Assembly (NCBI GenBank): GCA_000004985.1 | Contig: GG738891.1 | DNA from: Naegleria gruberi | Taxonomy: Eukaryota | DNA length: 64,000 nt | Reading direction: 5' to 3' (one strand) | The notes under the pieces: generated by a model | The model's database searches: none | What the model saw: the letters and a program-made list of their open reading frames with translations, nothing else | What the model was told of the DNA's origin: nothing | In this document: one piece after another, positions 9,764-54,821 of the stretch | Layout of the letters: the number at the start of each line of letters is the position of its first letter | How positions within the stretch are numbered: position 1 is the first letter of the stretch | Program-made: the position numbers and the translations under genes

Positions 9764-10183
9764 AACCCAAACCCAAACCCAAACCCAAACCCAAACCCAA
9801 ACCCAAACCCAAACCCAAACCCAAACCCAAACCCAAACCCAAACCCAAACCCAAACCCAAACCCAAACCCAAACCCAAACCCAAACCCAAACCCAAACCC
9901 AAACCCAAACCCAAACCCAAACCCAAACCCAAACCCAAACCCAAACCCAAACCCAAACCCAAACCCAAACCCAAACCCAAACCCAAACCCAAACCCAAAC
10001 CCAAACCCAAACCCAAACCCAAACCCAAACCCAAACCCAAACCCAAACCCAAACCCAAACCCAAACCCAAACCCAAACCCAAACCCAAACCCAAACCCAA
10101 ACCCAAACCCAAACCCAAACCCAAACCCAAACCCAAACCCAAACCCAAACCCAACCAACACCAACCCCAAACCCAAACCCAAA
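9764..10183. repeat. Third telomere-repeat block (CCCAAA)n, same orientation
   Basis: Perfect CCCAAA repeats end in a third, distinct degenerate junction (cccaaccaacaccaaccccaaacccaaacccaaag) followed by unique DNA. Confidence 0.9.
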
Positions 10184-10262
10184 GATTATAAGAAATATAA
10201 TCAATGATACGAATCTTCACTAAGTAATCTCTTAAATAACCCAAATAAATCAACTCTGAATC

Positions 10263-10645
10263 CTAACCAAACCCTTCTAATTTTGATACAAAAAAATTGC
10301 TTTTAGGAGCAATTGGAGAACAATATTTTTCTATTGTTAGAGGAGTTTGTATTATAGTATTATCATTTAATAATTGTAAATGTTGTTTTTTAATTGTTAT
10401 TAAATTATTTTGATATTTATGTATAAAATTAGTAAACAAATTATAACTTTCATTCCATTTAATATCTTCCAAAATACAATCATCTTCATTAATTTCTTTT
10501 ACCTTTCCTTGTCCACATTTTACCATAATGTTATTATTAAATATAATACTTTCAACACTAAAAAAAAAATCATAATATTGTTTAGTTTTTACTTTAATTA
10601 TATCCAAATTAGCTTTGTAATTACTATAAATAAAATCTTCTTTTA
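10263..10645 (-). CDS. 3' (C-terminal) part of a protein-coding gene of unknown function; the 5' part lies in the 13.9-kb gap
   Basis: Track ORF 10263..10607 extends in frame, without a stop, up to the gap edge at 10645. The track's M at 10607 is a TTG, so it is not a real start. The C-terminal sequence is ...KEDFIYSNYKANLDIIKVKTKQYYDFFFSVESIIFNNNIMVKCGQGKVKEINEDDCILEDIKWNESYNLF...SKLEGFG*. I find no recognisable domain. The stop lies about 80 bp from telomere block 3. Confidence 0.45.
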
Positions 10646-13600: not shown

Positions 13601-16600
13601 NNNNNNNNNNNNNNNNNNNNNNNNNNNNNNNNNNNNNNNNNNNNNNNNNNNNNNNNNNNNNNNNNNNNNNNNNNNNNNNNNNNNNNNNNNNNNNNNNNNN
13701 NNNNNNNNNNNNNNNNNNNNNNNNNNNNNNNNNNNNNNNNNNNNNNNNNNNNNNNNNNNNNNNNNNNNNNNNNNNNNNNNNNNNNNNNNNNNNNNNNNNN
13801 NNNNNNNNNNNNNNNNNNNNNNNNNNNNNNNNNNNNNNNNNNNNNNNNNNNNNNNNNNNNNNNNNNNNNNNNNNNNNNNNNNNNNNNNNNNNNNNNNNNN
13901 NNNNNNNNNNNNNNNNNNNNNNNNNNNNNNNNNNNNNNNNNNNNNNNNNNNNNNNNNNNNNNNNNNNNNNNNNNNNNNNNNNNNNNNNNNNNNNNNNNNN
14001 NNNNNNNNNNNNNNNNNNNNNNNNNNNNNNNNNNNNNNNNNNNNNNNNNNNNNNNNNNNNNNNNNNNNNNNNNNNNNNNNNNNNNNNNNNNNNNNNNNNN
14101 NNNNNNNNNNNNNNNNNNNNNNNNNNNNNNNNNNNNNNNNNNNNNNNNNNNNNNNNNNNNNNNNNNNNNNNNNNNNNNNNNNNNNNNNNNNNNNNNNNNN
14201 NNNNNNNNNNNNNNNNNNNNNNNNNNNNNNNNNNNNNNNNNNNNNNNNNNNNNNNNNNNNNNNNNNNNNNNNNNNNNNNNNNNNNNNNNNNNNNNNNNNN
14301 NNNNNNNNNNNNNNNNNNNNNNNNNNNNNNNNNNNNNNNNNNNNNNNNNNNNNNNNNNNNNNNNNNNNNNNNNNNNNNNNNNNNNNNNNNNNNNNNNNNN
14401 NNNNNNNNNNNNNNNNNNNNNNNNNNNNNNNNNNNNNNNNNNNNNNNNNNNNNNNNNNNNNNNNNNNNNNNNNNNNNNNNNNNNNNNNNNNNNNNNNNNN
14501 NNNNNNNNNNNNNNNNNNNNNNNNNNNNNNNNNNNNNNNNNNNNNNNNNNNNNNNNNNNNNNNNNNNNNNNNNNNNNNNNNNNNNNNNNNNNNNNNNNNN
14601 NNNNNNNNNNNNNNNNNNNNNNNNNNNNNNNNNNNNNNNNNNNNNNNNNNNNNNNNNNNNNNNNNNNNNNNNNNNNNNNNNNNNNNNNNNNNNNNNNNNN
14701 NNNNNNNNNNNNNNNNNNNNNNNNNNNNNNNNNNNNNNNNNNNNNNNNNNNNNNNNNNNNNNNNNNNNNNNNNNNNNNNNNNNNNNNNNNNNNNNNNNNN
14801 NNNNNNNNNNNNNNNNNNNNNNNNNNNNNNNNNNNNNNNNNNNNNNNNNNNNNNNNNNNNNNNNNNNNNNNNNNNNNNNNNNNNNNNNNNNNNNNNNNNN
14901 NNNNNNNNNNNNNNNNNNNNNNNNNNNNNNNNNNNNNNNNNNNNNNNNNNNNNNNNNNNNNNNNNNNNNNNNNNNNNNNNNNNNNNNNNNNNNNNNNNNN
15001 NNNNNNNNNNNNNNNNNNNNNNNNNNNNNNNNNNNNNNNNNNNNNNNNNNNNNNNNNNNNNNNNNNNNNNNNNNNNNNNNNNNNNNNNNNNNNNNNNNNN
15101 NNNNNNNNNNNNNNNNNNNNNNNNNNNNNNNNNNNNNNNNNNNNNNNNNNNNNNNNNNNNNNNNNNNNNNNNNNNNNNNNNNNNNNNNNNNNNNNNNNNN
15201 NNNNNNNNNNNNNNNNNNNNNNNNNNNNNNNNNNNNNNNNNNNNNNNNNNNNNNNNNNNNNNNNNNNNNNNNNNNNNNNNNNNNNNNNNNNNNNNNNNNN
15301 NNNNNNNNNNNNNNNNNNNNNNNNNNNNNNNNNNNNNNNNNNNNNNNNNNNNNNNNNNNNNNNNNNNNNNNNNNNNNNNNNNNNNNNNNNNNNNNNNNNN
15401 NNNNNNNNNNNNNNNNNNNNNNNNNNNNNNNNNNNNNNNNNNNNNNNNNNNNNNNNNNNNNNNNNNNNNNNNNNNNNNNNNNNNNNNNNNNNNNNNNNNN
15501 NNNNNNNNNNNNNNNNNNNNNNNNNNNNNNNNNNNNNNNNNNNNNNNNNNNNNNNNNNNNNNNNNNNNNNNNNNNNNNNNNNNNNNNNNNNNNNNNNNNN
15601 NNNNNNNNNNNNNNNNNNNNNNNNNNNNNNNNNNNNNNNNNNNNNNNNNNNNNNNNNNNNNNNNNNNNNNNNNNNNNNNNNNNNNNNNNNNNNNNNNNNN
15701 NNNNNNNNNNNNNNNNNNNNNNNNNNNNNNNNNNNNNNNNNNNNNNNNNNNNNNNNNNNNNNNNNNNNNNNNNNNNNNNNNNNNNNNNNNNNNNNNNNNN
15801 NNNNNNNNNNNNNNNNNNNNNNNNNNNNNNNNNNNNNNNNNNNNNNNNNNNNNNNNNNNNNNNNNNNNNNNNNNNNNNNNNNNNNNNNNNNNNNNNNNNN
15901 NNNNNNNNNNNNNNNNNNNNNNNNNNNNNNNNNNNNNNNNNNNNNNNNNNNNNNNNNNNNNNNNNNNNNNNNNNNNNNNNNNNNNNNNNNNNNNNNNNNN
16001 NNNNNNNNNNNNNNNNNNNNNNNNNNNNNNNNNNNNNNNNNNNNNNNNNNNNNNNNNNNNNNNNNNNNNNNNNNNNNNNNNNNNNNNNNNNNNNNNNNNN
16101 NNNNNNNNNNNNNNNNNNNNNNNNNNNNNNNNNNNNNNNNNNNNNNNNNNNNNNNNNNNNNNNNNNNNNNNNNNNNNNNNNNNNNNNNNNNNNNNNNNNN
16201 NNNNNNNNNNNNNNNNNNNNNNNNNNNNNNNNNNNNNNNNNNNNNNNNNNNNNNNNNNNNNNNNNNNNNNNNNNNNNNNNNNNNNNNNNNNNNNNNNNNN
16301 NNNNNNNNNNNNNNNNNNNNNNNNNNNNNNNNNNNNNNNNNNNNNNNNNNNNNNNNNNNNNNNNNNNNNNNNNNNNNNNNNNNNNNNNNNNNNNNNNNNN
16401 NNNNNNNNNNNNNNNNNNNNNNNNNNNNNNNNNNNNNNNNNNNNNNNNNNNNNNNNNNNNNNNNNNNNNNNNNNNNNNNNNNNNNNNNNNNNNNNNNNNN
16501 NNNNNNNNNNNNNNNNNNNNNNNNNNNNNNNNNNNNNNNNNNNNNNNNNNNNNNNNNNNNNNNNNNNNNNNNNNNNNNNNNNNNNNNNNNNNNNNNNNNN

Positions 16601-19600
16601 NNNNNNNNNNNNNNNNNNNNNNNNNNNNNNNNNNNNNNNNNNNNNNNNNNNNNNNNNNNNNNNNNNNNNNNNNNNNNNNNNNNNNNNNNNNNNNNNNNNN
16701 NNNNNNNNNNNNNNNNNNNNNNNNNNNNNNNNNNNNNNNNNNNNNNNNNNNNNNNNNNNNNNNNNNNNNNNNNNNNNNNNNNNNNNNNNNNNNNNNNNNN
16801 NNNNNNNNNNNNNNNNNNNNNNNNNNNNNNNNNNNNNNNNNNNNNNNNNNNNNNNNNNNNNNNNNNNNNNNNNNNNNNNNNNNNNNNNNNNNNNNNNNNN
16901 NNNNNNNNNNNNNNNNNNNNNNNNNNNNNNNNNNNNNNNNNNNNNNNNNNNNNNNNNNNNNNNNNNNNNNNNNNNNNNNNNNNNNNNNNNNNNNNNNNNN
17001 NNNNNNNNNNNNNNNNNNNNNNNNNNNNNNNNNNNNNNNNNNNNNNNNNNNNNNNNNNNNNNNNNNNNNNNNNNNNNNNNNNNNNNNNNNNNNNNNNNNN
17101 NNNNNNNNNNNNNNNNNNNNNNNNNNNNNNNNNNNNNNNNNNNNNNNNNNNNNNNNNNNNNNNNNNNNNNNNNNNNNNNNNNNNNNNNNNNNNNNNNNNN
17201 NNNNNNNNNNNNNNNNNNNNNNNNNNNNNNNNNNNNNNNNNNNNNNNNNNNNNNNNNNNNNNNNNNNNNNNNNNNNNNNNNNNNNNNNNNNNNNNNNNNN
17301 NNNNNNNNNNNNNNNNNNNNNNNNNNNNNNNNNNNNNNNNNNNNNNNNNNNNNNNNNNNNNNNNNNNNNNNNNNNNNNNNNNNNNNNNNNNNNNNNNNNN
17401 NNNNNNNNNNNNNNNNNNNNNNNNNNNNNNNNNNNNNNNNNNNNNNNNNNNNNNNNNNNNNNNNNNNNNNNNNNNNNNNNNNNNNNNNNNNNNNNNNNNN
17501 NNNNNNNNNNNNNNNNNNNNNNNNNNNNNNNNNNNNNNNNNNNNNNNNNNNNNNNNNNNNNNNNNNNNNNNNNNNNNNNNNNNNNNNNNNNNNNNNNNNN
17601 NNNNNNNNNNNNNNNNNNNNNNNNNNNNNNNNNNNNNNNNNNNNNNNNNNNNNNNNNNNNNNNNNNNNNNNNNNNNNNNNNNNNNNNNNNNNNNNNNNNN
17701 NNNNNNNNNNNNNNNNNNNNNNNNNNNNNNNNNNNNNNNNNNNNNNNNNNNNNNNNNNNNNNNNNNNNNNNNNNNNNNNNNNNNNNNNNNNNNNNNNNNN
17801 NNNNNNNNNNNNNNNNNNNNNNNNNNNNNNNNNNNNNNNNNNNNNNNNNNNNNNNNNNNNNNNNNNNNNNNNNNNNNNNNNNNNNNNNNNNNNNNNNNNN
17901 NNNNNNNNNNNNNNNNNNNNNNNNNNNNNNNNNNNNNNNNNNNNNNNNNNNNNNNNNNNNNNNNNNNNNNNNNNNNNNNNNNNNNNNNNNNNNNNNNNNN
18001 NNNNNNNNNNNNNNNNNNNNNNNNNNNNNNNNNNNNNNNNNNNNNNNNNNNNNNNNNNNNNNNNNNNNNNNNNNNNNNNNNNNNNNNNNNNNNNNNNNNN
18101 NNNNNNNNNNNNNNNNNNNNNNNNNNNNNNNNNNNNNNNNNNNNNNNNNNNNNNNNNNNNNNNNNNNNNNNNNNNNNNNNNNNNNNNNNNNNNNNNNNNN
18201 NNNNNNNNNNNNNNNNNNNNNNNNNNNNNNNNNNNNNNNNNNNNNNNNNNNNNNNNNNNNNNNNNNNNNNNNNNNNNNNNNNNNNNNNNNNNNNNNNNNN
18301 NNNNNNNNNNNNNNNNNNNNNNNNNNNNNNNNNNNNNNNNNNNNNNNNNNNNNNNNNNNNNNNNNNNNNNNNNNNNNNNNNNNNNNNNNNNNNNNNNNNN
18401 NNNNNNNNNNNNNNNNNNNNNNNNNNNNNNNNNNNNNNNNNNNNNNNNNNNNNNNNNNNNNNNNNNNNNNNNNNNNNNNNNNNNNNNNNNNNNNNNNNNN
18501 NNNNNNNNNNNNNNNNNNNNNNNNNNNNNNNNNNNNNNNNNNNNNNNNNNNNNNNNNNNNNNNNNNNNNNNNNNNNNNNNNNNNNNNNNNNNNNNNNNNN
18601 NNNNNNNNNNNNNNNNNNNNNNNNNNNNNNNNNNNNNNNNNNNNNNNNNNNNNNNNNNNNNNNNNNNNNNNNNNNNNNNNNNNNNNNNNNNNNNNNNNNN
18701 NNNNNNNNNNNNNNNNNNNNNNNNNNNNNNNNNNNNNNNNNNNNNNNNNNNNNNNNNNNNNNNNNNNNNNNNNNNNNNNNNNNNNNNNNNNNNNNNNNNN
18801 NNNNNNNNNNNNNNNNNNNNNNNNNNNNNNNNNNNNNNNNNNNNNNNNNNNNNNNNNNNNNNNNNNNNNNNNNNNNNNNNNNNNNNNNNNNNNNNNNNNN
18901 NNNNNNNNNNNNNNNNNNNNNNNNNNNNNNNNNNNNNNNNNNNNNNNNNNNNNNNNNNNNNNNNNNNNNNNNNNNNNNNNNNNNNNNNNNNNNNNNNNNN
19001 NNNNNNNNNNNNNNNNNNNNNNNNNNNNNNNNNNNNNNNNNNNNNNNNNNNNNNNNNNNNNNNNNNNNNNNNNNNNNNNNNNNNNNNNNNNNNNNNNNNN
19101 NNNNNNNNNNNNNNNNNNNNNNNNNNNNNNNNNNNNNNNNNNNNNNNNNNNNNNNNNNNNNNNNNNNNNNNNNNNNNNNNNNNNNNNNNNNNNNNNNNNN
19201 NNNNNNNNNNNNNNNNNNNNNNNNNNNNNNNNNNNNNNNNNNNNNNNNNNNNNNNNNNNNNNNNNNNNNNNNNNNNNNNNNNNNNNNNNNNNNNNNNNNN
19301 NNNNNNNNNNNNNNNNNNNNNNNNNNNNNNNNNNNNNNNNNNNNNNNNNNNNNNNNNNNNNNNNNNNNNNNNNNNNNNNNNNNNNNNNNNNNNNNNNNNN
19401 NNNNNNNNNNNNNNNNNNNNNNNNNNNNNNNNNNNNNNNNNNNNNNNNNNNNNNNNNNNNNNNNNNNNNNNNNNNNNNNNNNNNNNNNNNNNNNNNNNNN
19501 NNNNNNNNNNNNNNNNNNNNNNNNNNNNNNNNNNNNNNNNNNNNNNNNNNNNNNNNNNNNNNNNNNNNNNNNNNNNNNNNNNNNNNNNNNNNNNNNNNNN

Positions 19601-22600
19601 NNNNNNNNNNNNNNNNNNNNNNNNNNNNNNNNNNNNNNNNNNNNNNNNNNNNNNNNNNNNNNNNNNNNNNNNNNNNNNNNNNNNNNNNNNNNNNNNNNNN
19701 NNNNNNNNNNNNNNNNNNNNNNNNNNNNNNNNNNNNNNNNNNNNNNNNNNNNNNNNNNNNNNNNNNNNNNNNNNNNNNNNNNNNNNNNNNNNNNNNNNNN
19801 NNNNNNNNNNNNNNNNNNNNNNNNNNNNNNNNNNNNNNNNNNNNNNNNNNNNNNNNNNNNNNNNNNNNNNNNNNNNNNNNNNNNNNNNNNNNNNNNNNNN
19901 NNNNNNNNNNNNNNNNNNNNNNNNNNNNNNNNNNNNNNNNNNNNNNNNNNNNNNNNNNNNNNNNNNNNNNNNNNNNNNNNNNNNNNNNNNNNNNNNNNNN
20001 NNNNNNNNNNNNNNNNNNNNNNNNNNNNNNNNNNNNNNNNNNNNNNNNNNNNNNNNNNNNNNNNNNNNNNNNNNNNNNNNNNNNNNNNNNNNNNNNNNNN
20101 NNNNNNNNNNNNNNNNNNNNNNNNNNNNNNNNNNNNNNNNNNNNNNNNNNNNNNNNNNNNNNNNNNNNNNNNNNNNNNNNNNNNNNNNNNNNNNNNNNNN
20201 NNNNNNNNNNNNNNNNNNNNNNNNNNNNNNNNNNNNNNNNNNNNNNNNNNNNNNNNNNNNNNNNNNNNNNNNNNNNNNNNNNNNNNNNNNNNNNNNNNNN
20301 NNNNNNNNNNNNNNNNNNNNNNNNNNNNNNNNNNNNNNNNNNNNNNNNNNNNNNNNNNNNNNNNNNNNNNNNNNNNNNNNNNNNNNNNNNNNNNNNNNNN
20401 NNNNNNNNNNNNNNNNNNNNNNNNNNNNNNNNNNNNNNNNNNNNNNNNNNNNNNNNNNNNNNNNNNNNNNNNNNNNNNNNNNNNNNNNNNNNNNNNNNNN
20501 NNNNNNNNNNNNNNNNNNNNNNNNNNNNNNNNNNNNNNNNNNNNNNNNNNNNNNNNNNNNNNNNNNNNNNNNNNNNNNNNNNNNNNNNNNNNNNNNNNNN
20601 NNNNNNNNNNNNNNNNNNNNNNNNNNNNNNNNNNNNNNNNNNNNNNNNNNNNNNNNNNNNNNNNNNNNNNNNNNNNNNNNNNNNNNNNNNNNNNNNNNNN
20701 NNNNNNNNNNNNNNNNNNNNNNNNNNNNNNNNNNNNNNNNNNNNNNNNNNNNNNNNNNNNNNNNNNNNNNNNNNNNNNNNNNNNNNNNNNNNNNNNNNNN
20801 NNNNNNNNNNNNNNNNNNNNNNNNNNNNNNNNNNNNNNNNNNNNNNNNNNNNNNNNNNNNNNNNNNNNNNNNNNNNNNNNNNNNNNNNNNNNNNNNNNNN
20901 NNNNNNNNNNNNNNNNNNNNNNNNNNNNNNNNNNNNNNNNNNNNNNNNNNNNNNNNNNNNNNNNNNNNNNNNNNNNNNNNNNNNNNNNNNNNNNNNNNNN
21001 NNNNNNNNNNNNNNNNNNNNNNNNNNNNNNNNNNNNNNNNNNNNNNNNNNNNNNNNNNNNNNNNNNNNNNNNNNNNNNNNNNNNNNNNNNNNNNNNNNNN
21101 NNNNNNNNNNNNNNNNNNNNNNNNNNNNNNNNNNNNNNNNNNNNNNNNNNNNNNNNNNNNNNNNNNNNNNNNNNNNNNNNNNNNNNNNNNNNNNNNNNNN
21201 NNNNNNNNNNNNNNNNNNNNNNNNNNNNNNNNNNNNNNNNNNNNNNNNNNNNNNNNNNNNNNNNNNNNNNNNNNNNNNNNNNNNNNNNNNNNNNNNNNNN
21301 NNNNNNNNNNNNNNNNNNNNNNNNNNNNNNNNNNNNNNNNNNNNNNNNNNNNNNNNNNNNNNNNNNNNNNNNNNNNNNNNNNNNNNNNNNNNNNNNNNNN
21401 NNNNNNNNNNNNNNNNNNNNNNNNNNNNNNNNNNNNNNNNNNNNNNNNNNNNNNNNNNNNNNNNNNNNNNNNNNNNNNNNNNNNNNNNNNNNNNNNNNNN
21501 NNNNNNNNNNNNNNNNNNNNNNNNNNNNNNNNNNNNNNNNNNNNNNNNNNNNNNNNNNNNNNNNNNNNNNNNNNNNNNNNNNNNNNNNNNNNNNNNNNNN
21601 NNNNNNNNNNNNNNNNNNNNNNNNNNNNNNNNNNNNNNNNNNNNNNNNNNNNNNNNNNNNNNNNNNNNNNNNNNNNNNNNNNNNNNNNNNNNNNNNNNNN
21701 NNNNNNNNNNNNNNNNNNNNNNNNNNNNNNNNNNNNNNNNNNNNNNNNNNNNNNNNNNNNNNNNNNNNNNNNNNNNNNNNNNNNNNNNNNNNNNNNNNNN
21801 NNNNNNNNNNNNNNNNNNNNNNNNNNNNNNNNNNNNNNNNNNNNNNNNNNNNNNNNNNNNNNNNNNNNNNNNNNNNNNNNNNNNNNNNNNNNNNNNNNNN
21901 NNNNNNNNNNNNNNNNNNNNNNNNNNNNNNNNNNNNNNNNNNNNNNNNNNNNNNNNNNNNNNNNNNNNNNNNNNNNNNNNNNNNNNNNNNNNNNNNNNNN
22001 NNNNNNNNNNNNNNNNNNNNNNNNNNNNNNNNNNNNNNNNNNNNNNNNNNNNNNNNNNNNNNNNNNNNNNNNNNNNNNNNNNNNNNNNNNNNNNNNNNNN
22101 NNNNNNNNNNNNNNNNNNNNNNNNNNNNNNNNNNNNNNNNNNNNNNNNNNNNNNNNNNNNNNNNNNNNNNNNNNNNNNNNNNNNNNNNNNNNNNNNNNNN
22201 NNNNNNNNNNNNNNNNNNNNNNNNNNNNNNNNNNNNNNNNNNNNNNNNNNNNNNNNNNNNNNNNNNNNNNNNNNNNNNNNNNNNNNNNNNNNNNNNNNNN
22301 NNNNNNNNNNNNNNNNNNNNNNNNNNNNNNNNNNNNNNNNNNNNNNNNNNNNNNNNNNNNNNNNNNNNNNNNNNNNNNNNNNNNNNNNNNNNNNNNNNNN
22401 NNNNNNNNNNNNNNNNNNNNNNNNNNNNNNNNNNNNNNNNNNNNNNNNNNNNNNNNNNNNNNNNNNNNNNNNNNNNNNNNNNNNNNNNNNNNNNNNNNNN
22501 NNNNNNNNNNNNNNNNNNNNNNNNNNNNNNNNNNNNNNNNNNNNNNNNNNNNNNNNNNNNNNNNNNNNNNNNNNNNNNNNNNNNNNNNNNNNNNNNNNNN

Positions 22601-24540
22601 NNNNNNNNNNNNNNNNNNNNNNNNNNNNNNNNNNNNNNNNNNNNNNNNNNNNNNNNNNNNNNNNNNNNNNNNNNNNNNNNNNNNNNNNNNNNNNNNNNNN
22701 NNNNNNNNNNNNNNNNNNNNNNNNNNNNNNNNNNNNNNNNNNNNNNNNNNNNNNNNNNNNNNNNNNNNNNNNNNNNNNNNNNNNNNNNNNNNNNNNNNNN
22801 NNNNNNNNNNNNNNNNNNNNNNNNNNNNNNNNNNNNNNNNNNNNNNNNNNNNNNNNNNNNNNNNNNNNNNNNNNNNNNNNNNNNNNNNNNNNNNNNNNNN
22901 NNNNNNNNNNNNNNNNNNNNNNNNNNNNNNNNNNNNNNNNNNNNNNNNNNNNNNNNNNNNNNNNNNNNNNNNNNNNNNNNNNNNNNNNNNNNNNNNNNNN
23001 NNNNNNNNNNNNNNNNNNNNNNNNNNNNNNNNNNNNNNNNNNNNNNNNNNNNNNNNNNNNNNNNNNNNNNNNNNNNNNNNNNNNNNNNNNNNNNNNNNNN
23101 NNNNNNNNNNNNNNNNNNNNNNNNNNNNNNNNNNNNNNNNNNNNNNNNNNNNNNNNNNNNNNNNNNNNNNNNNNNNNNNNNNNNNNNNNNNNNNNNNNNN
23201 NNNNNNNNNNNNNNNNNNNNNNNNNNNNNNNNNNNNNNNNNNNNNNNNNNNNNNNNNNNNNNNNNNNNNNNNNNNNNNNNNNNNNNNNNNNNNNNNNNNN
23301 NNNNNNNNNNNNNNNNNNNNNNNNNNNNNNNNNNNNNNNNNNNNNNNNNNNNNNNNNNNNNNNNNNNNNNNNNNNNNNNNNNNNNNNNNNNNNNNNNNNN
23401 NNNNNNNNNNNNNNNNNNNNNNNNNNNNNNNNNNNNNNNNNNNNNNNNNNNNNNNNNNNNNNNNNNNNNNNNNNNNNNNNNNNNNNNNNNNNNNNNNNNN
23501 NNNNNNNNNNNNNNNNNNNNNNNNNNNNNNNNNNNNNNNNNNNNNNNNNNNNNNNNNNNNNNNNNNNNNNNNNNNNNNNNNNNNNNNNNNNNNNNNNNNN
23601 NNNNNNNNNNNNNNNNNNNNNNNNNNNNNNNNNNNNNNNNNNNNNNNNNNNNNNNNNNNNNNNNNNNNNNNNNNNNNNNNNNNNNNNNNNNNNNNNNNNN
23701 NNNNNNNNNNNNNNNNNNNNNNNNNNNNNNNNNNNNNNNNNNNNNNNNNNNNNNNNNNNNNNNNNNNNNNNNNNNNNNNNNNNNNNNNNNNNNNNNNNNN
23801 NNNNNNNNNNNNNNNNNNNNNNNNNNNNNNNNNNNNNNNNNNNNNNNNNNNNNNNNNNNNNNNNNNNNNNNNNNNNNNNNNNNNNNNNNNNNNNNNNNNN
23901 NNNNNNNNNNNNNNNNNNNNNNNNNNNNNNNNNNNNNNNNNNNNNNNNNNNNNNNNNNNNNNNNNNNNNNNNNNNNNNNNNNNNNNNNNNNNNNNNNNNN
24001 NNNNNNNNNNNNNNNNNNNNNNNNNNNNNNNNNNNNNNNNNNNNNNNNNNNNNNNNNNNNNNNNNNNNNNNNNNNNNNNNNNNNNNNNNNNNNNNNNNNN
24101 NNNNNNNNNNNNNNNNNNNNNNNNNNNNNNNNNNNNNNNNNNNNNNNNNNNNNNNNNNNNNNNNNNNNNNNNNNNNNNNNNNNNNNNNNNNNNNNNNNNN
24201 NNNNNNNNNNNNNNNNNNNNNNNNNNNNNNNNNNNNNNNNNNNNNNNNNNNNNNNNNNNNNNNNNNNNNNNNNNNNNNNNNNNNNNNNNNNNNNNNNNNN
24301 NNNNNNNNNNNNNNNNNNNNNNNNNNNNNNNNNNNNNNNNNNNNNNNNNNNNNNNNNNNNNNNNNNNNNNNNNNNNNNNNNNNNNNNNNNNNNNNNNNNN
24401 NNNNNNNNNNNNNNNNNNNNNNNNNNNNNNNNNNNNNNNNNNNNNNNNNNNNNNNNNNNNNNNNNNNNNNNNNNNNNNNNNNNNNNNNNNNNNNNNNNNN
24501 NNNNNNNNNNNNNNNNNNNNNNNNNNNNNNNNNNNNNNNN
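10646..24540. other. Assembly gap (13895 N)
   Basis: N run. It probably hides the 5' ends of the flanking genes, including further EGF repeats of the gene starting at 24541. Confidence 0.95.
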
Positions 24541-27500
24541 AATGTTTTGGATTGAATTCCAGTGATAATTCAGTTTGTTCAAGTCATGGTCAATGTATTA
24601 ATGCTGACACTTGTCAATGTAATACTGGATGGTTTGGAAGTAACTGCTCAATTCACTCCTGCAATGGAACTAGTTCACAAGATTTAAAACACGTCTGCAA
24701 TGGAAATGGAGTATGTATTCAAATGGACAAGTGTGATTGTAATAATGGATGGTTTGGATCTGATTGTTCAATTCATTCTTGTAATGGAACCAGTTCACAA
24801 GATTTACACAGTGTTTGTAATAATGGTAATGGTCAGTGCATTGGAACAGAGTTGTGTTTGTGTAACCAAAATTGGGCTGGTCAGTTCTGTACTATTCCTA
24901 AATGTTTTGGCGTTATTTCTACAGACGCTACAGTTTGCTCTACTCATGGTAATTGTACTGATATTAATACTTGTCAATGTAATACAGGTTGGTTTGGAAC
25001 TGATTGTTCAATTCACTCCTGCAATGGAACTAGTTCACAAGATTTAAAACACGTCTGCAATGAGGAAATGGAGTATGTGTTCAAATGGACAAGTGTGATT
25101 GTAATAAGGGATGGTTTGGATCTGATTGTTCAATTCATTCTTGTAATGGAACCAGTTCACAAGATGAGCAAAATGTTTGTAATGGAGGAAGAGGTCAATG
25201 TATTGGCACTGATATTTGCTCATGTAATGAAACATGGACAGGTCAATTCTGTGAAATTCCAAAATGTTTTGGATTGAATTCCAGTGATAATTCAGTTTGT
25301 TCCAGTCATGGTCAATGTATTAATGCTGACACTTGTCATTGTAATAAGGGATGGTTTGGTAGTAACTGCTCAATTCATTCGTGTAATGGAACTAGTTCAC
25401 AAGATGTGCAAAACGTTTGTAATGGAGGAAATGGTCAGTGCATTGGAACAGATTTGTGTTTGTGTAACCAAAATTGGGCTGGTCAGTTCTGTACTATTCC
25501 TAAATGTTATGGCGTTATTTCTACAGACGCTACAGTTTGCTCTACTCATGGTAACTGTACTGATATTAATACTTGCCAATGTAATACAGGTTGGTTTGGT
25601 CCATTATGTAGTATTCACTCCTGCAATGGAACTAGTTCACAAGATTTAAAACACGTCTGCAATGGTGGTAATGGAGTATGCATTCAAATGGATAAGTGTG
25701 ATTGTAAATCTGGTTGGACAGGCCAGTTCTGTGAAATTCCAACATGTTTCGGATTAGCTTCAACTGCTAAAAAAGTGTGTGCTGGTCATGGAGATTGCAT
25801 GAGCTCTGATAAATGCTCTTGTAATAATGGATGGTTTGGATCTGATTGTTCAATTCATTCTTGTAATGGAACTAGTTCACAAGATGAGCAAAATGTTTGT
25901 AATGGAGGAAGAGGTCAATGTATTGGCACTGATATTTGCTCATGTAATGAAACATGGACAGGTCAATTCTGTGAAATTCCTAAATGTTTTGGATTGAATT
26001 CAAGTGATAATTCAGTTTGTTCCAGTCATGGTCAATGTATTAATGCTAACACTTGTCATTGTAATAAGGGATGGTTTGGTAGTAACTGCTCAATTCATTC
26101 ATGTAATGGAACAAGTTCACAAGATGTACAAAACGTTTGTAATGGAGGAAATGGTGAGTGCATTGGAATAGAGTTGTGTTTGTGTGACCAAAATTGGNNN
26201 NNNNNNNNNNNNNNNNNNNNNNNNNNNNNNNNNNNNNNNNNNNNNNNNNNNNNNNNNNNNNNNNNNNNNNNNNNNNNNNNNNNNNNNNNNNNNNNNNNNN
26301 NNNNNNNNNNNNNNNNNNNNNNNNNNNNNNNNNNNNNNNNNNNNNNNNNNNNNNNNNNNNNNNNNNNNNNNNNNNNNNNNNNNNNNNNNNNNNNNNNNNN
26401 NNNNNNNNNNNNNNNNNNNNNNNNNNNNNNNNNNNNNNNNNNNNNNNNNNNNNNNNNNNNNNNNNNNNNNNNNNNNNNNNNNNNNNNNNNNNNNNNNNNN
26501 NNNNNNNNNNNNNNNNNNNNNNNNNNNNNNNNNNNNNNNNNNNNNNNNNNNNNNNNNNNNNNNNNNNNNNNNNNNNNNNNNNNNNNNNNNNNNNNNNNNN
26601 NNNNNNNNNNNNNNNNNNNNNNNNNNNNNNNNNNNNNNNNNNNNNNNNNNNNNNNNNNNNNNNNNNNNNNNNNNNNNNNNNNNNNNNNNNNNNNNNNNNN
26701 NNNNNNNNNNNNNNNNNNNNNNNNNNNNNNNNNNNNNNNNNNNNNNNNNNNNNNNNNNNNNNNNNNNNNNNNNNNNNNNNNNNNNNNNNNNNNNNNNNNN
26801 NNNNNNNNNNNNNNNNNNNNNNNNNNNNNNNNNNNNNNNNNNNNNNNNNNNAATAATGAAGGAAATGGATTACTGTTCCAAATGACCTCTCCAAATCATT
26901 TCACATCCTTAAATGTTGATTGTAACAATTTATTAGATTCTTCAAGTATTTCCTCATTTGGTTCAAATGTAGTTTGTAGATATTCTAATAAGACATCCAA
27001 TGATTTTATTATTGAATTGGGAACTGATAATTCTATTCAAGTTGATCAAGAAATTTTATTGAATAGAAATGTGTTTAATAGAAACAAATTAGGAAATGAT
27101 TATCAATCATTCAAAATTGGAAATGCTGAAAATCCCATTCCACCAACAATTTTAATTTCTCAAAAAACAACATATTCAAGTTGTGAAAATATTCTATTGG
27201 ATGCAAGTGAAAGTTATTCCACAGATGGAAAACAAATTTCCTATAAATGGGAAATTGTATCTTCCAACATGATGACACTTCCAAACAATAATTCAAGCAA
27301 ACTGTCAATCACCTATGACAGTATAAATGCTGGAAGTCATACTTTCAAATTGACAACTACAAGCCAAATTTTGAAAACATCCTCATCTAAGCAAGTCACA
27401 TTCCAAAAATTGAATTATGCAACACCTGTCATTTCTATTGAAGGAAGTGACAGCCTTTCACTTTCAACAAGCTCATTGCCTTTGATTGTAAGAAAATTAA

Positions 27501-29932
27501 TCACATTACCTTCTTGTTTACCTTCAAAATCTGAAATTATTGTAAAATGGGAATATTTGAGTGGAACTGGAATGGAATATCAAGTTGACTCTTACAATAA
27601 CTTGAAGATTGTTAAATTTAATGATTTGACACAGTTAACACATCAAGTTAAAGTTTCATCATATTTGAAAGGCAAAGAAGATCAAATTTCATCAGTCAAT
27701 CTTAATATCCAAATGACAGCTAGACCACTAGTTGTTAACTTGATCCAAATTGAATCAACAATTGACCAAGTAATAATTGAGATCGAAGAAATTGATTCTG
27801 ATTTGCAAACTATTCCATTCGACAGAGAATGGTCCACCAATAATTTGAATAACAATGACAACATCTTACAATATCTATCATCTATCAAGAATAATACATT
27901 AACAATTACAAAATCATTAGTGAACGGTGCTTCTCAATTCGACATTTCATTAAGGTCAAGTAAGGTTTCCAGATATTCCACTTCAACTCTCTCCATTTTA
28001 TTCCCAGAATCTCCTACACAAATTCCACCTTCAATCACACCAGCTAACTCACCACCATCAAAACTGAATAAGGGAACTTTATTAAGCGTACAAAGTATTG
28101 TTTCGAGTGCAAGTAACAATATTATTAGAGAATGGACAATGAATGGACAATCTATTCCTTCAGATTTGACAAGTAATATGAGAATGCAACTTTCCGAGTC
28201 TGATGAATTAATTTTGGACACATCTTCTTTGACAGAAGGTTCTACTTATCAAATTTCTTTCAAAGTTACTAATGTTGATTCTTTGTTGTCTGCTTCATTG
28301 AATCATTCATTTGTAATTAACAAATCACCAAAACCATGTGACTGTCAAGTGTCACCTTTGAGTGGTATTGCAATGACAACAATATTTACTTTCAATTGTC
28401 CAAAATGTCAAAACGATCAGAATAGTAATACTTTTGAATATGGTTTTATTGATGACTTTTCAAAATCCAACTTTCCACTTTCTAAAACAGAAGAATTATA
28501 TCAAAAACTTCCAATGCCAAATTCTGGAAACAAATTAGATCTTTATGTCAAGGTAATTGATTCATTGACAGGATCTAGCTCCATAACAACCAAACAAGTT
28601 ACCATTTCTCTTCCAGTTGTCAAAAGTTTAGCAGAAATCAAAGCATTAACGTCTTCTTGGAACCAAATAGCAACATTGGCTCCTGTTGGTGATTATCAAC
28701 GAAGTGTTTTCAATACTGCAACCATTTCTAGAACAATGAATTTATTATTTAACAGTATAAGTTCAAAGAGAGATTTTTGTAATGGAAATGGACAATTTAA
28801 GGATGGAAAATGTGTTTGTAATTTTGGATTTACAACAAGAAATTGTAAATGGTCCACTGAAGATTTTGAATTTATTCAATCTTTAATTAGAGATTTATTG
28901 AATGATTTTATGGGTTCAAGTCAAATCATGACAACCGCTTCAGAATCAACAAATAGAAATTACATTACAAATTTATTATTTGGATTGAATTCAATTTCAC
29001 AAAATTCTGAATATCTTTCTAACCAAATGGTCAACTCTAGTTTAATTTTATTGAGAGATGCTTTGGTATCAGTTCAATCAAGTACTGCCTTTGTTCTGTC
29101 TAGAGGAGATTTGGTCAACTTGCAAAATATTTTGAACTTGCAAGAAAATTTAATGGATGGTGAAAAATTATTGCAAACTGTTGAATTATTAGGACAAGTT
29201 TTATTGAGAAATGTTTTAATTGGTCAAACACCATTTAAATTTGAAACTAACAGTTATTTGACAGTTTTAAACAAACATTTCAAGAATCAAATGAATGGAA
29301 TGAAATTCGAAAGTGAGATGGTGAATATCACGTTGCCATGGAACATTTCATCTTTCTTGAAAACTAATTCAATCAAGTCACCAATCAAGTACAGATGGAA
29401 TATTCAAAAAAATACAGACACCATTGCAATTGCAAATCAACCTGGAAAGATAATATCAATCAATTCAGTTGCGAATAGTTTACAACTTGATCCTTCACCT
29501 CAATCTTATTCGAAATACTTATTCGACATTGAGATGAAACAATACGACAGTCAGGCAGCTTATGTTTGTGCCAACATTGGATCAGCATCATTGGAAACTG
29601 ATTGTTCCATTTCTATCAAGAATAACCAAATAGCAACTTGTGAATGCTCTTCATTAGGATATAATCTTGTAATTCTTGAATACAAATCCATTGAAAATCA
29701 TGTATCAACCTCCTCTTCATCAAATTCAAATATAATTGTCAAAAAACCTCCAACGAGCAATCCATTAATGTGGTTATTATTGTTACTAGTCCTCATTCCA
29801 CTTACTGCCCTACTAATTGCAGTAATTGTATGGTTTGTAGTAAAGAAACTGGGTAAAGATAAGAATAATACAAGAAATCCATACATGCAAACACAAGAAA
29901 GCAGTTCTACAATTGAATTGAAGCATGTTTAA
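24541..29932 (+). CDS. Very large EGF-repeat surface protein (5' end in gap). It has tandem tenascin/laminin-type EGF modules, a long Ser/Thr/Asn-rich extracellular region, a membrane-proximal EGF and a GPS-like Cys motif, one C-terminal TM helix and a short cytoplasmic tail
   Basis: The open frame runs from the gap edge. About 12 near-identical EGF units (C-x-C-N-x-G-W-x-G-x-x-C-S-I-H-S-C-N-G-T-S-S-Q-D...) are repeated almost exactly at the DNA level. An apparent frameshift near 25062 (caatgaggaaatgg versus caatggaggaaatgg in sister repeats) splits the track ORFs 10410..25277 and 25085..29932; it is most simply a 1-nt deletion error. An internal gap lies at 26198-26851. After the repeats come CNGNGQFKDGKCVCNFGFTTRNCKW (EGF) and ATCECSSLGYNLVILEY (GPS-like), then the TM helix LMWLLLLLVLIPLTALLIAVIVWFVV, and the stop at 29930-29932. 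Confidence 0.8.
26198..26851. other. Assembly gap (654 N) inside the EGF-repeat gene
   Basis: N run. The reading frame is plausible on both sides of it. Confidence 0.9.
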
Positions 29933-30276: not shown

Positions 30277-32364
30277 ATGTTTCCACAACAAGCTCCACGG
30301 ATTGTGGTAGAGATAAAACTTGGTAACACAGTTGCTCAATTGTTTCCAGATGGTAGCTTGAGTAATGGTTCAACCAGTATTACTGATTTCAGCGCAGTTG
30401 CACTAAACAAGCAAAACAAGCAAGTATGGGGGTTTGAAAATGACAAAGTTAAAATATTGTGCAATCAAAACCACGTTTGTAGTTATGGTCAAGTCAACCA
30501 CTTGATAACAGGCAAGGGATTAAATAGGCTTCGTTCTCTTTACAATCTCGTAATAACAAAATATCTCCAACAACAGCCAAACATCACCGTTCCCAGAACC
30601 AATGCTGGTGACACCACACCAGCAACACATGATGCCTTCCAAAAGAAATTGGCTGAATTAGTTGAAAAATTCAAAACCAAGTATTCGAAACTAAGAGGTG
30701 TAGAATTCATTCAACCTGTTGTGTTTGGATCTTCTGTCCATGGCAGAGAGTTTAATGAAGATACAGTCAAAGATGTTGAAATTGTTACCATTTATGATGC
30801 TCCATCTCTTCATGCTTTACAATATGGAGTGGCTGGTTTGGGAGAAACGTCTTACTATGATGCTCAGTTGGCCTCCCAATATGAGTGTCTCAATATTTAT
30901 GGAGCTGAATGTTGTTTTATTGAAGCAATCAAAACACCATGTGAACATACTTTTGAAGGAATTAGTTATAGTAATGAAAGAAGTGAATGGATTGAACTGC
31001 TAGTTCTTCAATTAAGATTGTTTCCAAACCTCAGACAAATCAGAGTGCTTTGTTGTAAGAAAAACCAAAATATCTTGTTGGGAAATGATATCTTCAATTT
31101 GATTGCTGCCAAGACAGAAGTAATTGTTTTCATGCATTCATCCCCAACAAATGTCATGTACAACCGTTCAGAAATGTTCAATGAGAGAGAAGCAAAAAAG
31201 AAAGAAGGACTACCACAACCATATAGTAAGGACTTTAACTCTTTCGTGACACGTGCCTCACAGTATACAGCTATCAATATTGATTTGAAAAAAGAAAGAT
31301 CTAATATTCAAAACAAGGAACCAAGTGGAAAGAAAACAGATAACACAACCAAGCCACAACCATTTAAATTCGAAAGGTTCTTTTCCTCCAATAAGTGGAA
31401 AGCTCTAGAACCGACTGAAGAGACAAGTAATCTACACAGAGACTGGAACGAAGTGTTTGATTCACGTGAATATAGCACTATCAAGGAATATTGTGATTAT
31501 CTCACTTCAAGACCTGGCCAGTGTCAATTTGATAGTGTATTACTATTGATCAATGAACCAGATAGAAATTTGAGAGAGGAAGTGGCTCAACACATTGAAC
31601 TAAATTGTGATTATTACCAAGAATATATTGATGAACCATTTGAACAATACATTCGTAAAGTTCGTGGAAATGATTGGGGAGATAATATCACACTAAGAGC
31701 TATATCTGAAGTATTAAGTGTGAGAATTATAGTTGTTGATGAGGATGAAGGAACAGATGATGTTGTTTTGGGTCATTTCTTTGAAGAAGAAATTGTTTTA
31801 GGATTTGTCAATCAATCTCATTACATCCCACTGATCAAAAGAGAACACATGCCTACATATCATCATTATGGCACTGCCATTGAACAACAGAGAATGATTT
31901 CTGCTGAACTTACTGATGTTCATGAAACAAGTACTGATGGTGGCCATTACGATTGGCAAACCTCTCAATTACCATCCAACCAATCAACCCAAAATGTTCC
32001 AGATGAAGGCCAAGAAGGCAACTCCAAAGAAGAGAGCTATATTGAGAGAAACCCCCATAAATCACACACACAAAAAAAAAGTTCTAACAGAAATACTAGA
32101 AAGAATCAATTCAATCCTGCTCTTTGTGTATTTATTACCAATCTATCCTATTCATCAACATGGAGAGAAATTAAGGAATTATTTGATGGAGCTACCTATG
32201 TTAAATTATTCAAAAATCAAGATTCTGAACAACACAAAGGATGTGGTTATATTCAATTCAAATCCAAAGAACAGAAAGATGCTGCTTTAAAATTGAAGCA
32301 ACCAATATCACACAATGGAAGAAACATTAAGATAAGAGAATATGAAAAGAGAAACAACAAATAG
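30277..32364 (+). CDS. OTU-domain (ovarian-tumour cysteine protease/deubiquitinase-like) protein with a C-terminal RRM RNA-binding domain
   Basis: A single 695-aa ORF starts with ATG at 30277. The OTU signature reads RPGQCQFDSVLLLI (Cys box) ... GNDWGDNITLRAISEVLSVRIIVV ... NQSHYIPL (His box). The RRM has RNP2 LCVFITNL and RNP1 KGCGYIQF. The N-terminal roughly 330 aa have no recognisable domain. Confidence 0.65.
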   Translation: MFPQQAPRIVVEIKLGNTVAQLFPDGSLSNGSTSITDFSAVALNKQNKQVWGFENDKVKILCNQNHVCSYGQVNHLITGKGLNRLRSLYNLVITKYLQQQPNITVPRTNAGDTTPATHDAFQKKLAELVEKFKTKYSKLRGVEFIQPVVFGSSVHGREFNEDTVKDVEIVTIYDAPSLHALQYGVAGLGETSYYDAQLASQYECLNIYGAECCFIEAIKTPCEHTFEGISYSNERSEWIELLVLQLRLFPNLRQIRVLCCKKNQNILLGNDIFNLIAAKTEVIVFMHSSPTNVMYNRSEMFNEREAKKKEGLPQPYSKDFNSFVTRASQYTAINIDLKKERSNIQNKEPSGKKTDNTTKPQPFKFERFFSSNKWKALEPTEETSNLHRDWNEVFDSREYSTIKEYCDYLTSRPGQCQFDSVLLLINEPDRNLREEVAQHIELNCDYYQEYIDEPFEQYIRKVRGNDWGDNITLRAISEVLSVRIIVVDEDEGTDDVVLGHFFEEEIVLGFVNQSHYIPLIKREHMPTYHHYGTAIEQQRMISAELTDVHETSTDGGHYDWQTSQLPSNQSTQNVPDEGQEGNSKEESYIERNPHKSHTQKKSSNRNTRKNQFNPALCVFITNLSYSSTWREIKELFDGATYVKLFKNQDSEQHKGCGYIQFKSKEQKDAALKLKQPISHNGRNIKIREYEKRNNK

Positions 32365-32400: not shown

Positions 32401-34188
32401 TTAGTGGTCATTAAAATAAACAACCATACTACCATGTGTAATTTCCCAAGCCAATTTCAATTCCCAACAATAAGGTACTTCCTTAGAAATTAATGCAATT
32501 GAGCCATTATCCTCATTTCCAATTATTAGAAAGTTCAATTTAATGTCATCATCAATGAAAGGAAAATAGGTAACTGATAATTTATCCCCTTCATTTTCTA
32601 CTCCAACGTGACACTTTTCGTCCTTCCAATCAAAACTTCCTTCAAATACAGAGCCATGCGCCTCCAAATTACATGAGACAATTGACTGGTTTTGAGATAT
32701 TTCAATATAGTTACTAGTGGCAACTTTCAAGGAATCTTTCACTTCGTCTGATAGATATTCTGATGATAATACCATTTTTGAAACATGTTCTGGAATTGAT
32801 TTGAGAGAACTTGAAAAATTATTCGAAACGAAATCTGAAACGATTCCACAAACAAATTCCAAATGTTCTCTCTTTTCATATTTCATCATGAAATAGAGAG
32901 TATAAACTGGATTCAATGCTTGCAAGATTTGTGAAATTGTCATTTCATCTCCTAAATATAAACATAATTCGTATAATAATTCTAAACTTTCAAATGGCTT
33001 TCCAATAAAATAATCTTGTAAATCTAATGGTTTAACTTTCAGACTTTCCAAATATAATTCAAATATTTCAATAACTTTTTCTGATTGAGAAATAATGTTT
33101 TTTTCAATGCCTGTCATGTCAATTATCAAAACACCATCTTGGTTTCTCTTACAATTTTCTTTCCAATTAGAGCTCAACATGGTTGACAAGAAATTTGATC
33201 TTTTCAACAATTGACTTTCGAATAAAAATTCATTTTTGGAAAATTGAATCAAAACCTTCTCATCCGTAACTGAAATGTCATTCACACTTTCCATCACATT
33301 ATTAGAAAACATCAATCTTCCAACATTTTCAATTGGATTAATCAAAATCTTGACTTTGGAATTCTCAATTAAAACTTTCGAATACCATTTCAATTTCTCT
33401 TCTTCTGTGAAAAAATCATTGACAATTTCAAAAATTCTGTTAAATGATGCAAAATGTCCACAATTAAATGCCATGATGAAATATTCCAATGATTTTACAT
33501 AATCATCATAGTCATCATCTTCGGCTCCTGAATAAATATTCCCTAAACCTATTAAGGCATTGACGCAATTCAATTCAGCAGCTTTCGAATAGTATTCCAC
33601 TGCTTTTGCAGTATCATAGTTAACTTTCATATAAAAGTTTCCAATAGCACATAGAGAAGCTGGATGATCTTGTTGAGCAGCTTTCATATACCATTCTAAA
33701 GCTTTCGAATAATCTTTTTTAACTCCCTTTCCCTTTGCAAACAAATTTCCAATACAATATTGAGACTCTGCACTATTTAATTCAGCAGCTTTCGAATACC
33801 ATTTCATAGAATTTTTGTAATCACTGTCTGAAGAATACAAGGAGCCAATCTTCAAGATTGCATTCAAATGATTATTTTCCATCGATTTCACACACCATTC
33901 CCATGCATTGTCCAAATCTTCTTGGCGATTTAAATAAAAAATATAAAATCTAGTGAATGGATGCTTAGCTGTCATTATGGAAATGTCATTAATCAATTGA
34001 TCAAATAAATCGGAATGAATTTTAATTTCTTGCTTCTTATTTTTGATATTTTCCAATAATTGCTCATTCCAATTTATCAATTTTTCAATTTCTGCTTCTT
34101 CATATTTGGACACCAACTTTCGGTCAGTTTCTTCTAGTTTAACTTTCTTCAAATCTTGTTGTGATTCTCCCTCACCCACTCTTTTCAT
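32401..34188 (-). CDS. Sel1-like repeat protein with a central BTB/POZ-like region
   Basis: 595-aa ORF, ATG at 34188. There are at least four Sel1/TPR-like repeats (YSKAAELNSAESQYCIGNLFAKGKGVKKDYSKALEWYMKAAQQDHPASLCAIGNFY..., YSKAAELNCVNALIGLGNIYSG). The stretch VLIQFSKNEFLFESQLLKRSNFLSTMLSSNW...GVLIID resembles the start of a BTB domain. Confidence 0.65.
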   Translation of the reverse strand: MKRVGEGESQQDLKKVKLEETDRKLVSKYEEAEIEKLINWNEQLLENIKNKKQEIKIHSDLFDQLINDISIMTAKHPFTRFYIFYLNRQEDLDNAWEWCVKSMENNHLNAILKIGSLYSSDSDYKNSMKWYSKAAELNSAESQYCIGNLFAKGKGVKKDYSKALEWYMKAAQQDHPASLCAIGNFYMKVNYDTAKAVEYYSKAAELNCVNALIGLGNIYSGAEDDDYDDYVKSLEYFIMAFNCGHFASFNRIFEIVNDFFTEEEKLKWYSKVLIENSKVKILINPIENVGRLMFSNNVMESVNDISVTDEKVLIQFSKNEFLFESQLLKRSNFLSTMLSSNWKENCKRNQDGVLIIDMTGIEKNIISQSEKVIEIFELYLESLKVKPLDLQDYFIGKPFESLELLYELCLYLGDEMTISQILQALNPVYTLYFMMKYEKREHLEFVCGIVSDFVSNNFSSSLKSIPEHVSKMVLSSEYLSDEVKDSLKVATSNYIEISQNQSIVSCNLEAHGSVFEGSFDWKDEKCHVGVENEGDKLSVTYFPFIDDDIKLNFLIIGNEDNGSIALISKEVPYCWELKLAWEITHGSMVVYFNDH

Positions 34189-54086: not shown

Positions 54087-54137
54087 NNNNNNNNNNNNNN
54101 NNNNNNNNNNNNNNNNNNNNNNNNNNNNNNNNNNNNN
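54087..54137. other. Assembly gap (51 N) joining the truncated membrane-protein gene copy to a PARP 3' fragment
   Basis: N run. Confidence 0.9.
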
Positions 54138-54746: not shown

Positions 54747-54813
54747 TTGACATTGTGACAAGCCAACCACGTGTCCAAATTTCCAACCATCATTGACATT
54801 GTGACAAGCCAAC
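54747..54813 (+). promoter_or_regulatory. Perfect 21-bp direct repeat (ttgacattgtgacaagccaac) x2 immediately upstream of the F-box/LRR gene ATG
   Basis: Copies lie at 54747-54767 and 54793-54813, with 46-nt spacing. The second copy ends 8 nt before the ATG at 54822. Confidence 0.3.
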
Positions 54814-54821
54814 AAAAAAAA

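Follow-up and report, generated by a model that had tools for sequence, protein, structure and literature searches.

What kind of surface protein is encoded at positions 24541-29932 of the window, by which we mean the whole stretch of 64,000 nucleotides (nt) from contig GG738891.1 of the amoeba Naegleria gruberi that was analysed here, and does this protein carry, in front of its membrane anchor, a GAIN domain with the self-cleaving GPS motif of adhesion G-protein-coupled receptors (GPCRs) and polycystin-1? The same locus raises a further question, as a single missing base breaks the reading frame of the gene. The region is the 3' part of the annotated but uncharacterised N. gruberi gene NAEGRDRAFT_71476, since the 1026 codons at 26852-29929 are 100% identical to a 'predicted protein [Naegleria gruberi]' of 1447 residues that was identified by homology search (EFC40551.1 / XP_002673295.1, P0001 in our numbering) and that is encoded on a scaffold of 339 kb. 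On balance, we favour the reading that the gene encodes a type-I receptor of the order EGF–PKD/REJ–EGF–GAIN-like module in which the GPS does not cleave, that the frameshift is artefactual, and that the intron annotated beside it is artificial. The juxtamembrane module itself likely represents a divergent GAIN domain, because the six-helix models, the cysteine frame and the position after the REJ domain, taken together, point to this assignment. The following parts can be distinguished in the gene.

24543-26197, plus strand: EGF array of 14 units, the first at the contig edge and the last cut by a gap (translation, Pfam, Tandem Repeats Finder, ratio of nonsynonymous to synonymous changes, pN/pS)
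26198-26851, no strand: assembly gap of 654 N within the gene (N-run count, comparison with paralog P0002)
26852-28705, plus strand: PKD/REJ ectodomain region (Pfam)
28769-28864, plus strand: single small EGF between REJ and the juxtamembrane module, residues 640-671 (Pfam, family alignment)
28856-29293, plus strand: six-helix subdomain, similar to GAIN subdomain A
29294-29701, plus strand: beta-rich region with a GPS-like end (29561-29683: YVCANIGSASLETDCSISIKNNQIATCECSSLGYNLVILEY), assigned tentatively by its cysteine frame, the fold being putative
29762-29842, plus strand: single transmembrane helix PLMWLLLLLVLIPLTALLIAVIVWFVV, residues 971-997 (hydropathy, AlphaFold2 helix)
29843-29932, plus strand: cytoplasmic tail of 29 residues, KKLGKDKNNTRNPYMQTQESSSTIELKHV, with the stop codon TAA at 29930-29932 (translation, family alignment)

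GAIN domains comprise about 320 residues directly before the first transmembrane helix, and they consist of six helices and a twisted beta-sandwich of 13 strands, the last five of which form the GPS (Araç et al. 2012, PMC3321182); in polycystin-1, the GAIN domain follows directly after the REJ domain (PMC4810088). The Naegleria module, which comprises residues 669-950 of the C-terminal 1026 residues (about 280 residues), likewise directly precedes the transmembrane helix that starts at residue 971, and its GPS-like motif ATCECSSLGYNLVILEY at 29636-29683 ends 26 residues ahead of this sole transmembrane helix. AlphaFold2 models were obtained for the module itself and for that of paralog P0005, which is 27% identical (mean predicted local distance difference test scores, pLDDT, of 55 and 60, respectively). 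Both models contain six confident helices (pLDDT of about 70-90) and a beta region with a pLDDT below 50, and the six alpha-helices agree with the fold of GAIN subdomain A. One and the same GAIN crystal structure comes out first of 48,164 with both models, which are only about 27% identical, and three further GAIN structures are found within the top 5-28 for the module models. A Foldseek search of the PDB with the low-confidence model returned no GAIN match and only TPR and 14-3-3 proteins at E>0.04. As to the cysteines, the GPS of latrophilin-1 has the disulfides C801-C832 and C820-C834 and the triad H836-L837-T838 (PMC3321182). In the last 360 residues of the Naegleria protein there are only four cysteines, C906, C918, C930 and C932, the last of which is followed by S933-S934-L935-G936. 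Their spacing of 11-1-2 (C-11-C-1-C-x-x-L) equals that of real latrophilin sequences, including the register of the P1 leucine, and all four are invariant across the family. The module thus has the cysteine frame of a GPS, with a C-x-C two residues ahead of the P1 leucine, and the disulfide pairing is predicted only.

Several points weigh against our reading. The Pfam profiles for GPS (PF01825) and GAIN (PF16489) gave no match at E≤10 in the C-terminal protein or in the 285-residue module, and the same holds for the 75-residue GPS-like segments of five paralogs and for the full-length paralogs. Family profiles that were run against all PDB sequences detected no GAIN chain, the output being EGF noise or nothing. 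We also used hhalign for comparisons with latrophilin GAIN-B/GPS fragments that bear the Pfam GPS and GAIN annotations. The best local alignment sets ETDCSISIKNNQIATCECSSLGYNLVIL on the latrophilin GPS, i.e. GPS on GPS, and greedy extension yields the order of elements that is seen in latrophilin, without reaching significance: the scores are 16-20 with E=0.06-0.12 and a probability of about 1%, and a real score of 16.0 compares with 14.9 for the reversed sequence and a mean of 14.9 for block shuffles, 25% of which reach the real score. At the sequence level, the resemblance to a GPS is therefore not above chance. Beyond the module, the frameshift could be real, the function is entirely inferred, and the position of the 1.66-kb EGF contig in the scaffold is solely the choice of the assembler. 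What the protein shares with GAIN domains is subdomain A and the cysteine frame, and it fails the GPS profile and the catalytic triad.

If the module is a GAIN domain, its GPS is predicted to be non-cleaving by the canonical mechanism. The triad H-L↓T/S reads S-L-G here, with a serine in place of the histidine and a glycine in place of the threonine or serine, and canonical self-cleavage would be impossible because the nucleophile and the general base histidine are absent. In latrophilin, the T838G mutant still folds and the reported cleavage-site mutations abolish autoproteolysis (PMC3321182), and the exchange T3041V blocks the cleavage of polycystin-1 (PMC4810088). A working GPS that is autoproteolysed before the transmembrane helix, as in adhesion GPCRs and polycystin-1, would agree with the latrophilin-like register and its P1 leucine, but we consider it very improbable: the P1' glycine offers no nucleophile, P2 is serine and not histidine, the P1' residue of copy P0013 is arginine (S-L-R), the copies P0005, P0006, P0007 and P0014 have no leucine at the aligned position, and the loss of the threonine abolishes cleavage in both latrophilin and polycystin-1. 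A canonical cleaving GPS was thus rejected on the basis of the S-L-G site and the residues of the paralogs. The preliminary description of this DNA had seen a resemblance to a GPS/GAIN autoproteolysis motif in this segment and had named an unsuccessful profile search as its refutation. That search does fail at E≤10, the hhalign comparison is at chance, and the catalytic residues are replaced, and the motif therefore cannot be maintained in its original form; our assignment of a divergent GAIN domain without canonical cleavage is a different claim that builds on models, cysteines and position.

The second question concerns two features of the EGF-coding contig.

25062-25063, plus strand: frameshift, one G absent (AATG^AGGAAATGG, compared with AATGGAGGAAATGG in sister units), recognised by sister-unit comparison and copy offsets
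25073-25155, plus strand: GT..AG 'intron' of 83 nt in XP_002673295.1 (exon map of P0001 on the window)

A deletion of one G near 25062 had been described before, and the comparison with sister units, the copy offsets and the restoration of the frame on adding a G all confirm it. From 25056 the window has TGCAATGAGGAAATGGAG, and the TGCAATG^AGGAAATGG at this position contrasts with TGTAATGGAGGAAATGG in four sister units. The offsets between copies that span 25062/63 are 362/602/722/1082/1322, all of which are 2 mod 3, whereas the offsets on one side of the site are 240/360/480/720 and thus multiples of 3. The missing G is the sole lesion, and the downstream frames are free of stops over 371 codons (25085-26197) and 1026 codons (26852-29932). 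Long-standing decay is excluded because these make up about 1,400 stop-free codons in sequence of 33% GC, and the intact frames would favour either an artefact or an event of very recent date. About 520 nt separate the site from the edge of its contig, which comprises 1,657 nt in total, and from this small contig size we infer a low coverage. We take the N. gruberi genome to be a Sanger shotgun assembly, and base-calling errors are expected in such assemblies close to the ends of very small contigs. The most likely, albeit unproven, origin of the missing G is an error in base calling or assembly. Neither version of the frameshift site was matched in a scan of metagenomes (0 matches).

The frameshift may alternatively be genuine, and this copy would then be a recently inactivated pseudogene, one among several near-identical and redundant family members. 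We regard this as unlikely but worth serious attention, as the lesion stands in the public assembly and the annotators modelled around it, as the affected EGF unit is only two substitutions away from its nearest sister and hence very young, and as at least five copies have C-terminal modules that are 90-98% identical, and the loss of one could be cost-free. It is the solitary nature of the lesion, with no stop in the codons that follow, and its position where base-calling errors are generally expected that speak against this view. The annotators' way around the lesion, namely a real intron of 83 nt at 25073-25155 that bypasses the frame change, has GT..AG boundaries and restores the frame on removal, but it is the least probable of the explanations. 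The removed segment is EGF-coding and homologous codon by codon to the sister units, and splicing joins ..HVCNEEM to DSQDEQNVC.., and the resulting EGF is malformed, its number of cysteines being odd and its six-cysteine pattern broken. Moreover, the other GT..AG 'intron' of the model, 26153-26935, merely bridges the gap of 654 N, and the model begins at an internal methionine at 24723. The annotated intron was rejected on the grounds of its EGF-coding content and the malformed spliced EGF, and we judge that it is artificial and hides the frameshift. A much broader explanation would combine an uncleaved REJ–GAIN cassette in Discoba, originating near the eukaryote root before adhesion GPCRs and polycystins, with a subtelomeric, recombining adhesin-like family in which repeats are shuffled and frameshifts in G-runs act as real on/off or diversity switches. 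Such a combination appears improbable to us, and we keep to an ordinary receptor gene with an artefactual frameshift. The known range of GAIN includes Tetrahymena, Dictyostelium and animals (PMC3321182).

The domain order that follows from the window is a teneurin-type EGF array, PKD/REJ, one EGF, the module of about 280 residues, one transmembrane helix and a tail of 29 residues. The contig 24541-26197 (1,657 nt) is EGF-coding throughout and, with one G restored, translates into 552 residues without a stop. Its 14 EGF units comprise seven of 39 residues ('CFG..', A) and seven of 40-41 residues ('CNGTSSQD..', B) in the order A-B-B, A-B-B, A-B, A-B, A-B, A-B, with the final one truncated. Pfam detects EGF_Teneurin in 13 stretches (E=4e-64, 212.7 bits, cutoff 24.3) and EGF_2 (E=1e-54, 183 bits, cutoff 22.1), and with repeated six-cysteine modules above the Pfam thresholds the product can be classified as an EGF-like repeat protein. 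Behind the gap, the best REJ stretch is at 27833-28705 (residues 328-618), where PF02010 reaches 85.7 bits (cutoff 25, E=3.5e-24) and is covered from position 136 to 446 of 452, by which the product also qualifies as a REJ-domain protein. A PKD-like domain at 27140-27385 (residues 112-178) is weak, with 26.7 bits for K319L-like_PKD, just under the cutoff of 27, and PKD_4 is likewise weak on the C-terminal protein (16.8 bits, cutoff 27). The small EGF in front of the module is matched by EGF_Teneurin at residues 643-665 (E=4e-4), and its cysteines are nearly invariant in the family alignment. The transmembrane segment is the only 19-residue window with a Kyte-Doolittle hydropathy above 1.6, and it is followed by KKLGKDK. 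With the Pfam EGF matches and the one hydrophobic segment, the idea of the preliminary description that this is a single-pass surface protein with EGF repeats has held, and the REJ profile search that it had suggested is positive.

At the DNA level, the period of the array needs correction. Near-identical repeats of about 400 nt had been described; some copies are indeed 94-98.5% identical, but the periods are 120, 240, 360 and 720 nt, and only certain pairs are near-identical. Tandem Repeats Finder detects one period of 362 nt with 80% matches and another of 240 nt with 70% matches, which are super-units of a base period of 120 nt, and wider spacings are 360 and 720 nt. The closest copies, at an offset of 720, are 98.5% identical over 200 nt and 96% over 300 nt, and another pair at an offset of 602 is 94% identical. 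In the first two super-repeats, the second units differ from each other at only 2 of about 120 sites, and neighbouring units have diverged at about 50% of their synonymous sites. This mosaic of very recent and older duplications can be explained by unequal crossing-over or gene conversion. The EGF units appear to have evolved under constraint at the protein level, because the pooled pN/pS among them is 0.37-0.42, a value that we also count in favour of an artefactual frameshift.

A comparison with known systems shows which of these features are shared and which are not. suREJ1 of the sea urchin has one transmembrane segment. It comes closest among known proteins in its overall layout, being a modular surface protein with an EGF and a large REJ module (PMC2120838), but this animal sperm protein has one EGF and two C-type lectin modules and no long EGF array, and the likeness is one of layout. 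Polycystin-1 shares the succession of PKD, REJ and a GAIN domain with GPS directly before the first transmembrane helix (PMC4810088), and the REJ domain of the Naegleria protein is above the Pfam cutoff. Polycystin-1 differs, however, in its 11 transmembrane helices, its PLAT domain and its HL↓T site, which is cleaved, whereas the Naegleria protein has one transmembrane helix, a tail of 29 residues, the S-L-G sequence and no Pfam GPS, and a further EGF is inserted between its REJ domain and the module. A PLAT domain was not matched by Pfam in the C-terminal protein, in which only 29 residues follow the single transmembrane helix, and membership in the polycystin-1 family proper was ruled out by the single helix and the absence of PLAT. 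The GAIN domains of adhesion GPCRs (BAI3 4DLO, ADGRF1 8HC0, ADGRG6 6V55, CELSR1 8VY2) have no significant sequence similarity to the Naegleria module, which lacks the seven-transmembrane (7TM) core, the tryptophans, and the catalytic histidine and threonine, its beta subdomain being unverified. Pfam found no secretin-like 7TM domain (PF00002) in the protein with its one transmembrane helix, and an adhesion GPCR was ruled out on these two grounds. As for teneurins, EGF_Teneurin and EGF_TEN are the strongest Pfam matches, and P0005 and P0006 add NHL/TEN_NHL, but the YD-shell, Tox-GHH and type-II topology of teneurins are missing, and the likeness is one of generic modules.

The protein belongs to a Naegleria-specific family of putative type-I single-pass surface glycoproteins. 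When the last 427 residues were used for an exhaustive HMMER search of 1.84 billion representatives, only 10 proteins were obtained, and every named match among them comes from N. gruberi or N. fowleri; word-indexed searches for homologs were overwhelmed by words of low complexity and gave 2 matches with the C-terminal 1026 residues and 3 with the family profile. The common order is REJ, one EGF, a module of about 280-350 residues, one transmembrane helix and a short tail, and the REJ domain is found by Pfam in the paralogs as well. The N-terminal parts vary, with EGF arrays in all members and NHL repeats in P0005 and P0006. We assign the family to the type-I membrane proteins because P0003 has a start resembling a signal peptide and the single-helix layout is shared. 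P0003 (1854 residues) is also the closest full-length paralog, with 97.9% identity over 839 aligned residues, and in their C-terminal parts P0013, P0004 and P0015 reach about 90-92% identity, with two of these copies located on contigs of 1-3.5 kb. A look-up of encoding contigs for P0002 and P0015 returned none on record. A homolog from N. fowleri, P0014, exists, and UniProt labels the N. fowleri homolog as a 'PKD/REJ-like domain-containing protein'. In the literature searched, no paper was found that links GAIN or REJ domains with Naegleria.

Some observations on individual family members may be added. Upstream of REJ, P0005 (4502 residues) and P0006 (1514 residues) contain NHL/TEN_NHL beta-propeller repeats together with EGF_TEN-type arrays (Pfam), a teneurin-like combination of modules in a heterolobosean, and the two genes are adjacent on one 244-kb scaffold by accession number. 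In P0002 (NAEGRDRAFT_65131), an EGF array and about 115 residues that are 89% identical to the window from 26852 onward are joined to an unrelated C-terminal half, probably as a result of a chimeric gene model or the disruption of a paralog. P0003 lacks a stretch of 187 residues (199-385; window 27446-28006), whereas the window and other paralogs have it in frame and with REJ-like sequence. Its absence could be due either to a real deletion or to an artefact of the gene model or assembly. The tails encoded at 29843-29929 and in P0005, P0006, P0007 and P0014 share the pattern [hydrophobic]-E-[L/M]-x-x-V (IELKHV, IELITV, VEMETV, EELITV, FELRNV), and most family tails end in valine; the motif could be a trafficking or binding signal.

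The state of the assembly bears on how much of the gene can be described. The window has a GC content of about 33% and several N-gaps. The gaps that flank the EGF contig had previously been given as 13.9 kb and 654 nt, in agreement with our counts of 13,895 nt (10646-24540) and 654 nt (26198-26851). Judging from paralog P0002, the 654-N gap may hide about 290 more residues that belong to EGF-like modules. The size of the gene, which had been called giant, cannot be stated because its 5' end falls in the 13.9-kb gap. Both contig ends at the gaps are inside EGF repeats and at least five near-identical paralogous copies exist elsewhere, and it is therefore plausible that repeats and near-identical paralogs broke the shotgun assembly and produced the gaps. 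The repeats as a cause had been suggested in the preliminary description, and the contig ends and paralogs make it credible while it stays an inference.

On the left of the 13.9-kb gap, the contig 9764-10645 contains no EGF sequence but 68 CCCAAA units and then unique AT-rich sequence. Telomere-type (CCCAAA)n blocks are present at 1-267 (43 units), 785-1180 (58 units) and 9764-10245 (68 units), all in one orientation, and the unique AT-rich sequences that come after the three blocks are all different and have no similarity to one another. Three chromosome-end contigs thus appear to have been scaffolded together, and the joins at the start of the scaffold are doubtful because three such contigs cannot all fit one scaffold end. 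The EGF–REJ gene is probably subtelomeric, in a poorly assembled region. Next to the first telomere block there is a run rich in GAT/GTT trinucleotides (480-620), which on the minus strand, from an ATG near 609, reads as the start of a low-complexity protein rich in serine and threonine. Further small N-gaps of about 50 nt each occur at 735-784, 54087-54137 and 62349-62398, and single N at 60118 and 60186; as they are scattered, the draft quality is uneven over the window. The neighbouring open reading frames between 30277 and 63679 encode ordinary eukaryotic domains with no evident functional link to the EGF–REJ gene: OTU protease and RRM (30277-32364, plus strand), Sel1 repeats (32401-34188, minus strand), DUF4116 (46469-47980, minus strand), LRR (54771-55895, plus strand) and a PARP catalytic domain (62552-63679, minus strand).

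In our model, the divergent GAIN domain would consist of the six-helix subdomain A, a beta subdomain and the four-cysteine GPS-like end, and the module would serve as a rigid, disulfide-braced and uncleaved stalk that couples the long EGF–REJ ectodomain to the membrane. The EGF array could act as a spacer and binding surface. A tethered agonist would not be released, and there would be no 7TM or 11TM core for signalling. Judging by the architecture only, the protein may be a receptor that mediates the adhesion to, or the sensing of, substrate or prey.

In summary, the gene is an ordinary member of a lineage-specific gene family of amoeba surface proteins. For the curation of the locus, it follows that XP_002673295.1 is partial and has two artificial introns, one hiding the frameshift and one bridging the N-gap, and that neither the EGF contig nor the start of the scaffold is reliable. 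If the GAIN-like assignment is true, single-pass EGF–REJ–GAIN-like receptors whose GPS is degenerate and non-cleaving would have expanded specifically in the Naegleria lineage, and the range of GAIN would extend to Heterolobosea. The family would then offer a naturally uncleavable form with which polycystin-1 and adhesion GPCRs could be compared, and the N. fowleri homolog P0014 could bear on the adhesion of this pathogen.

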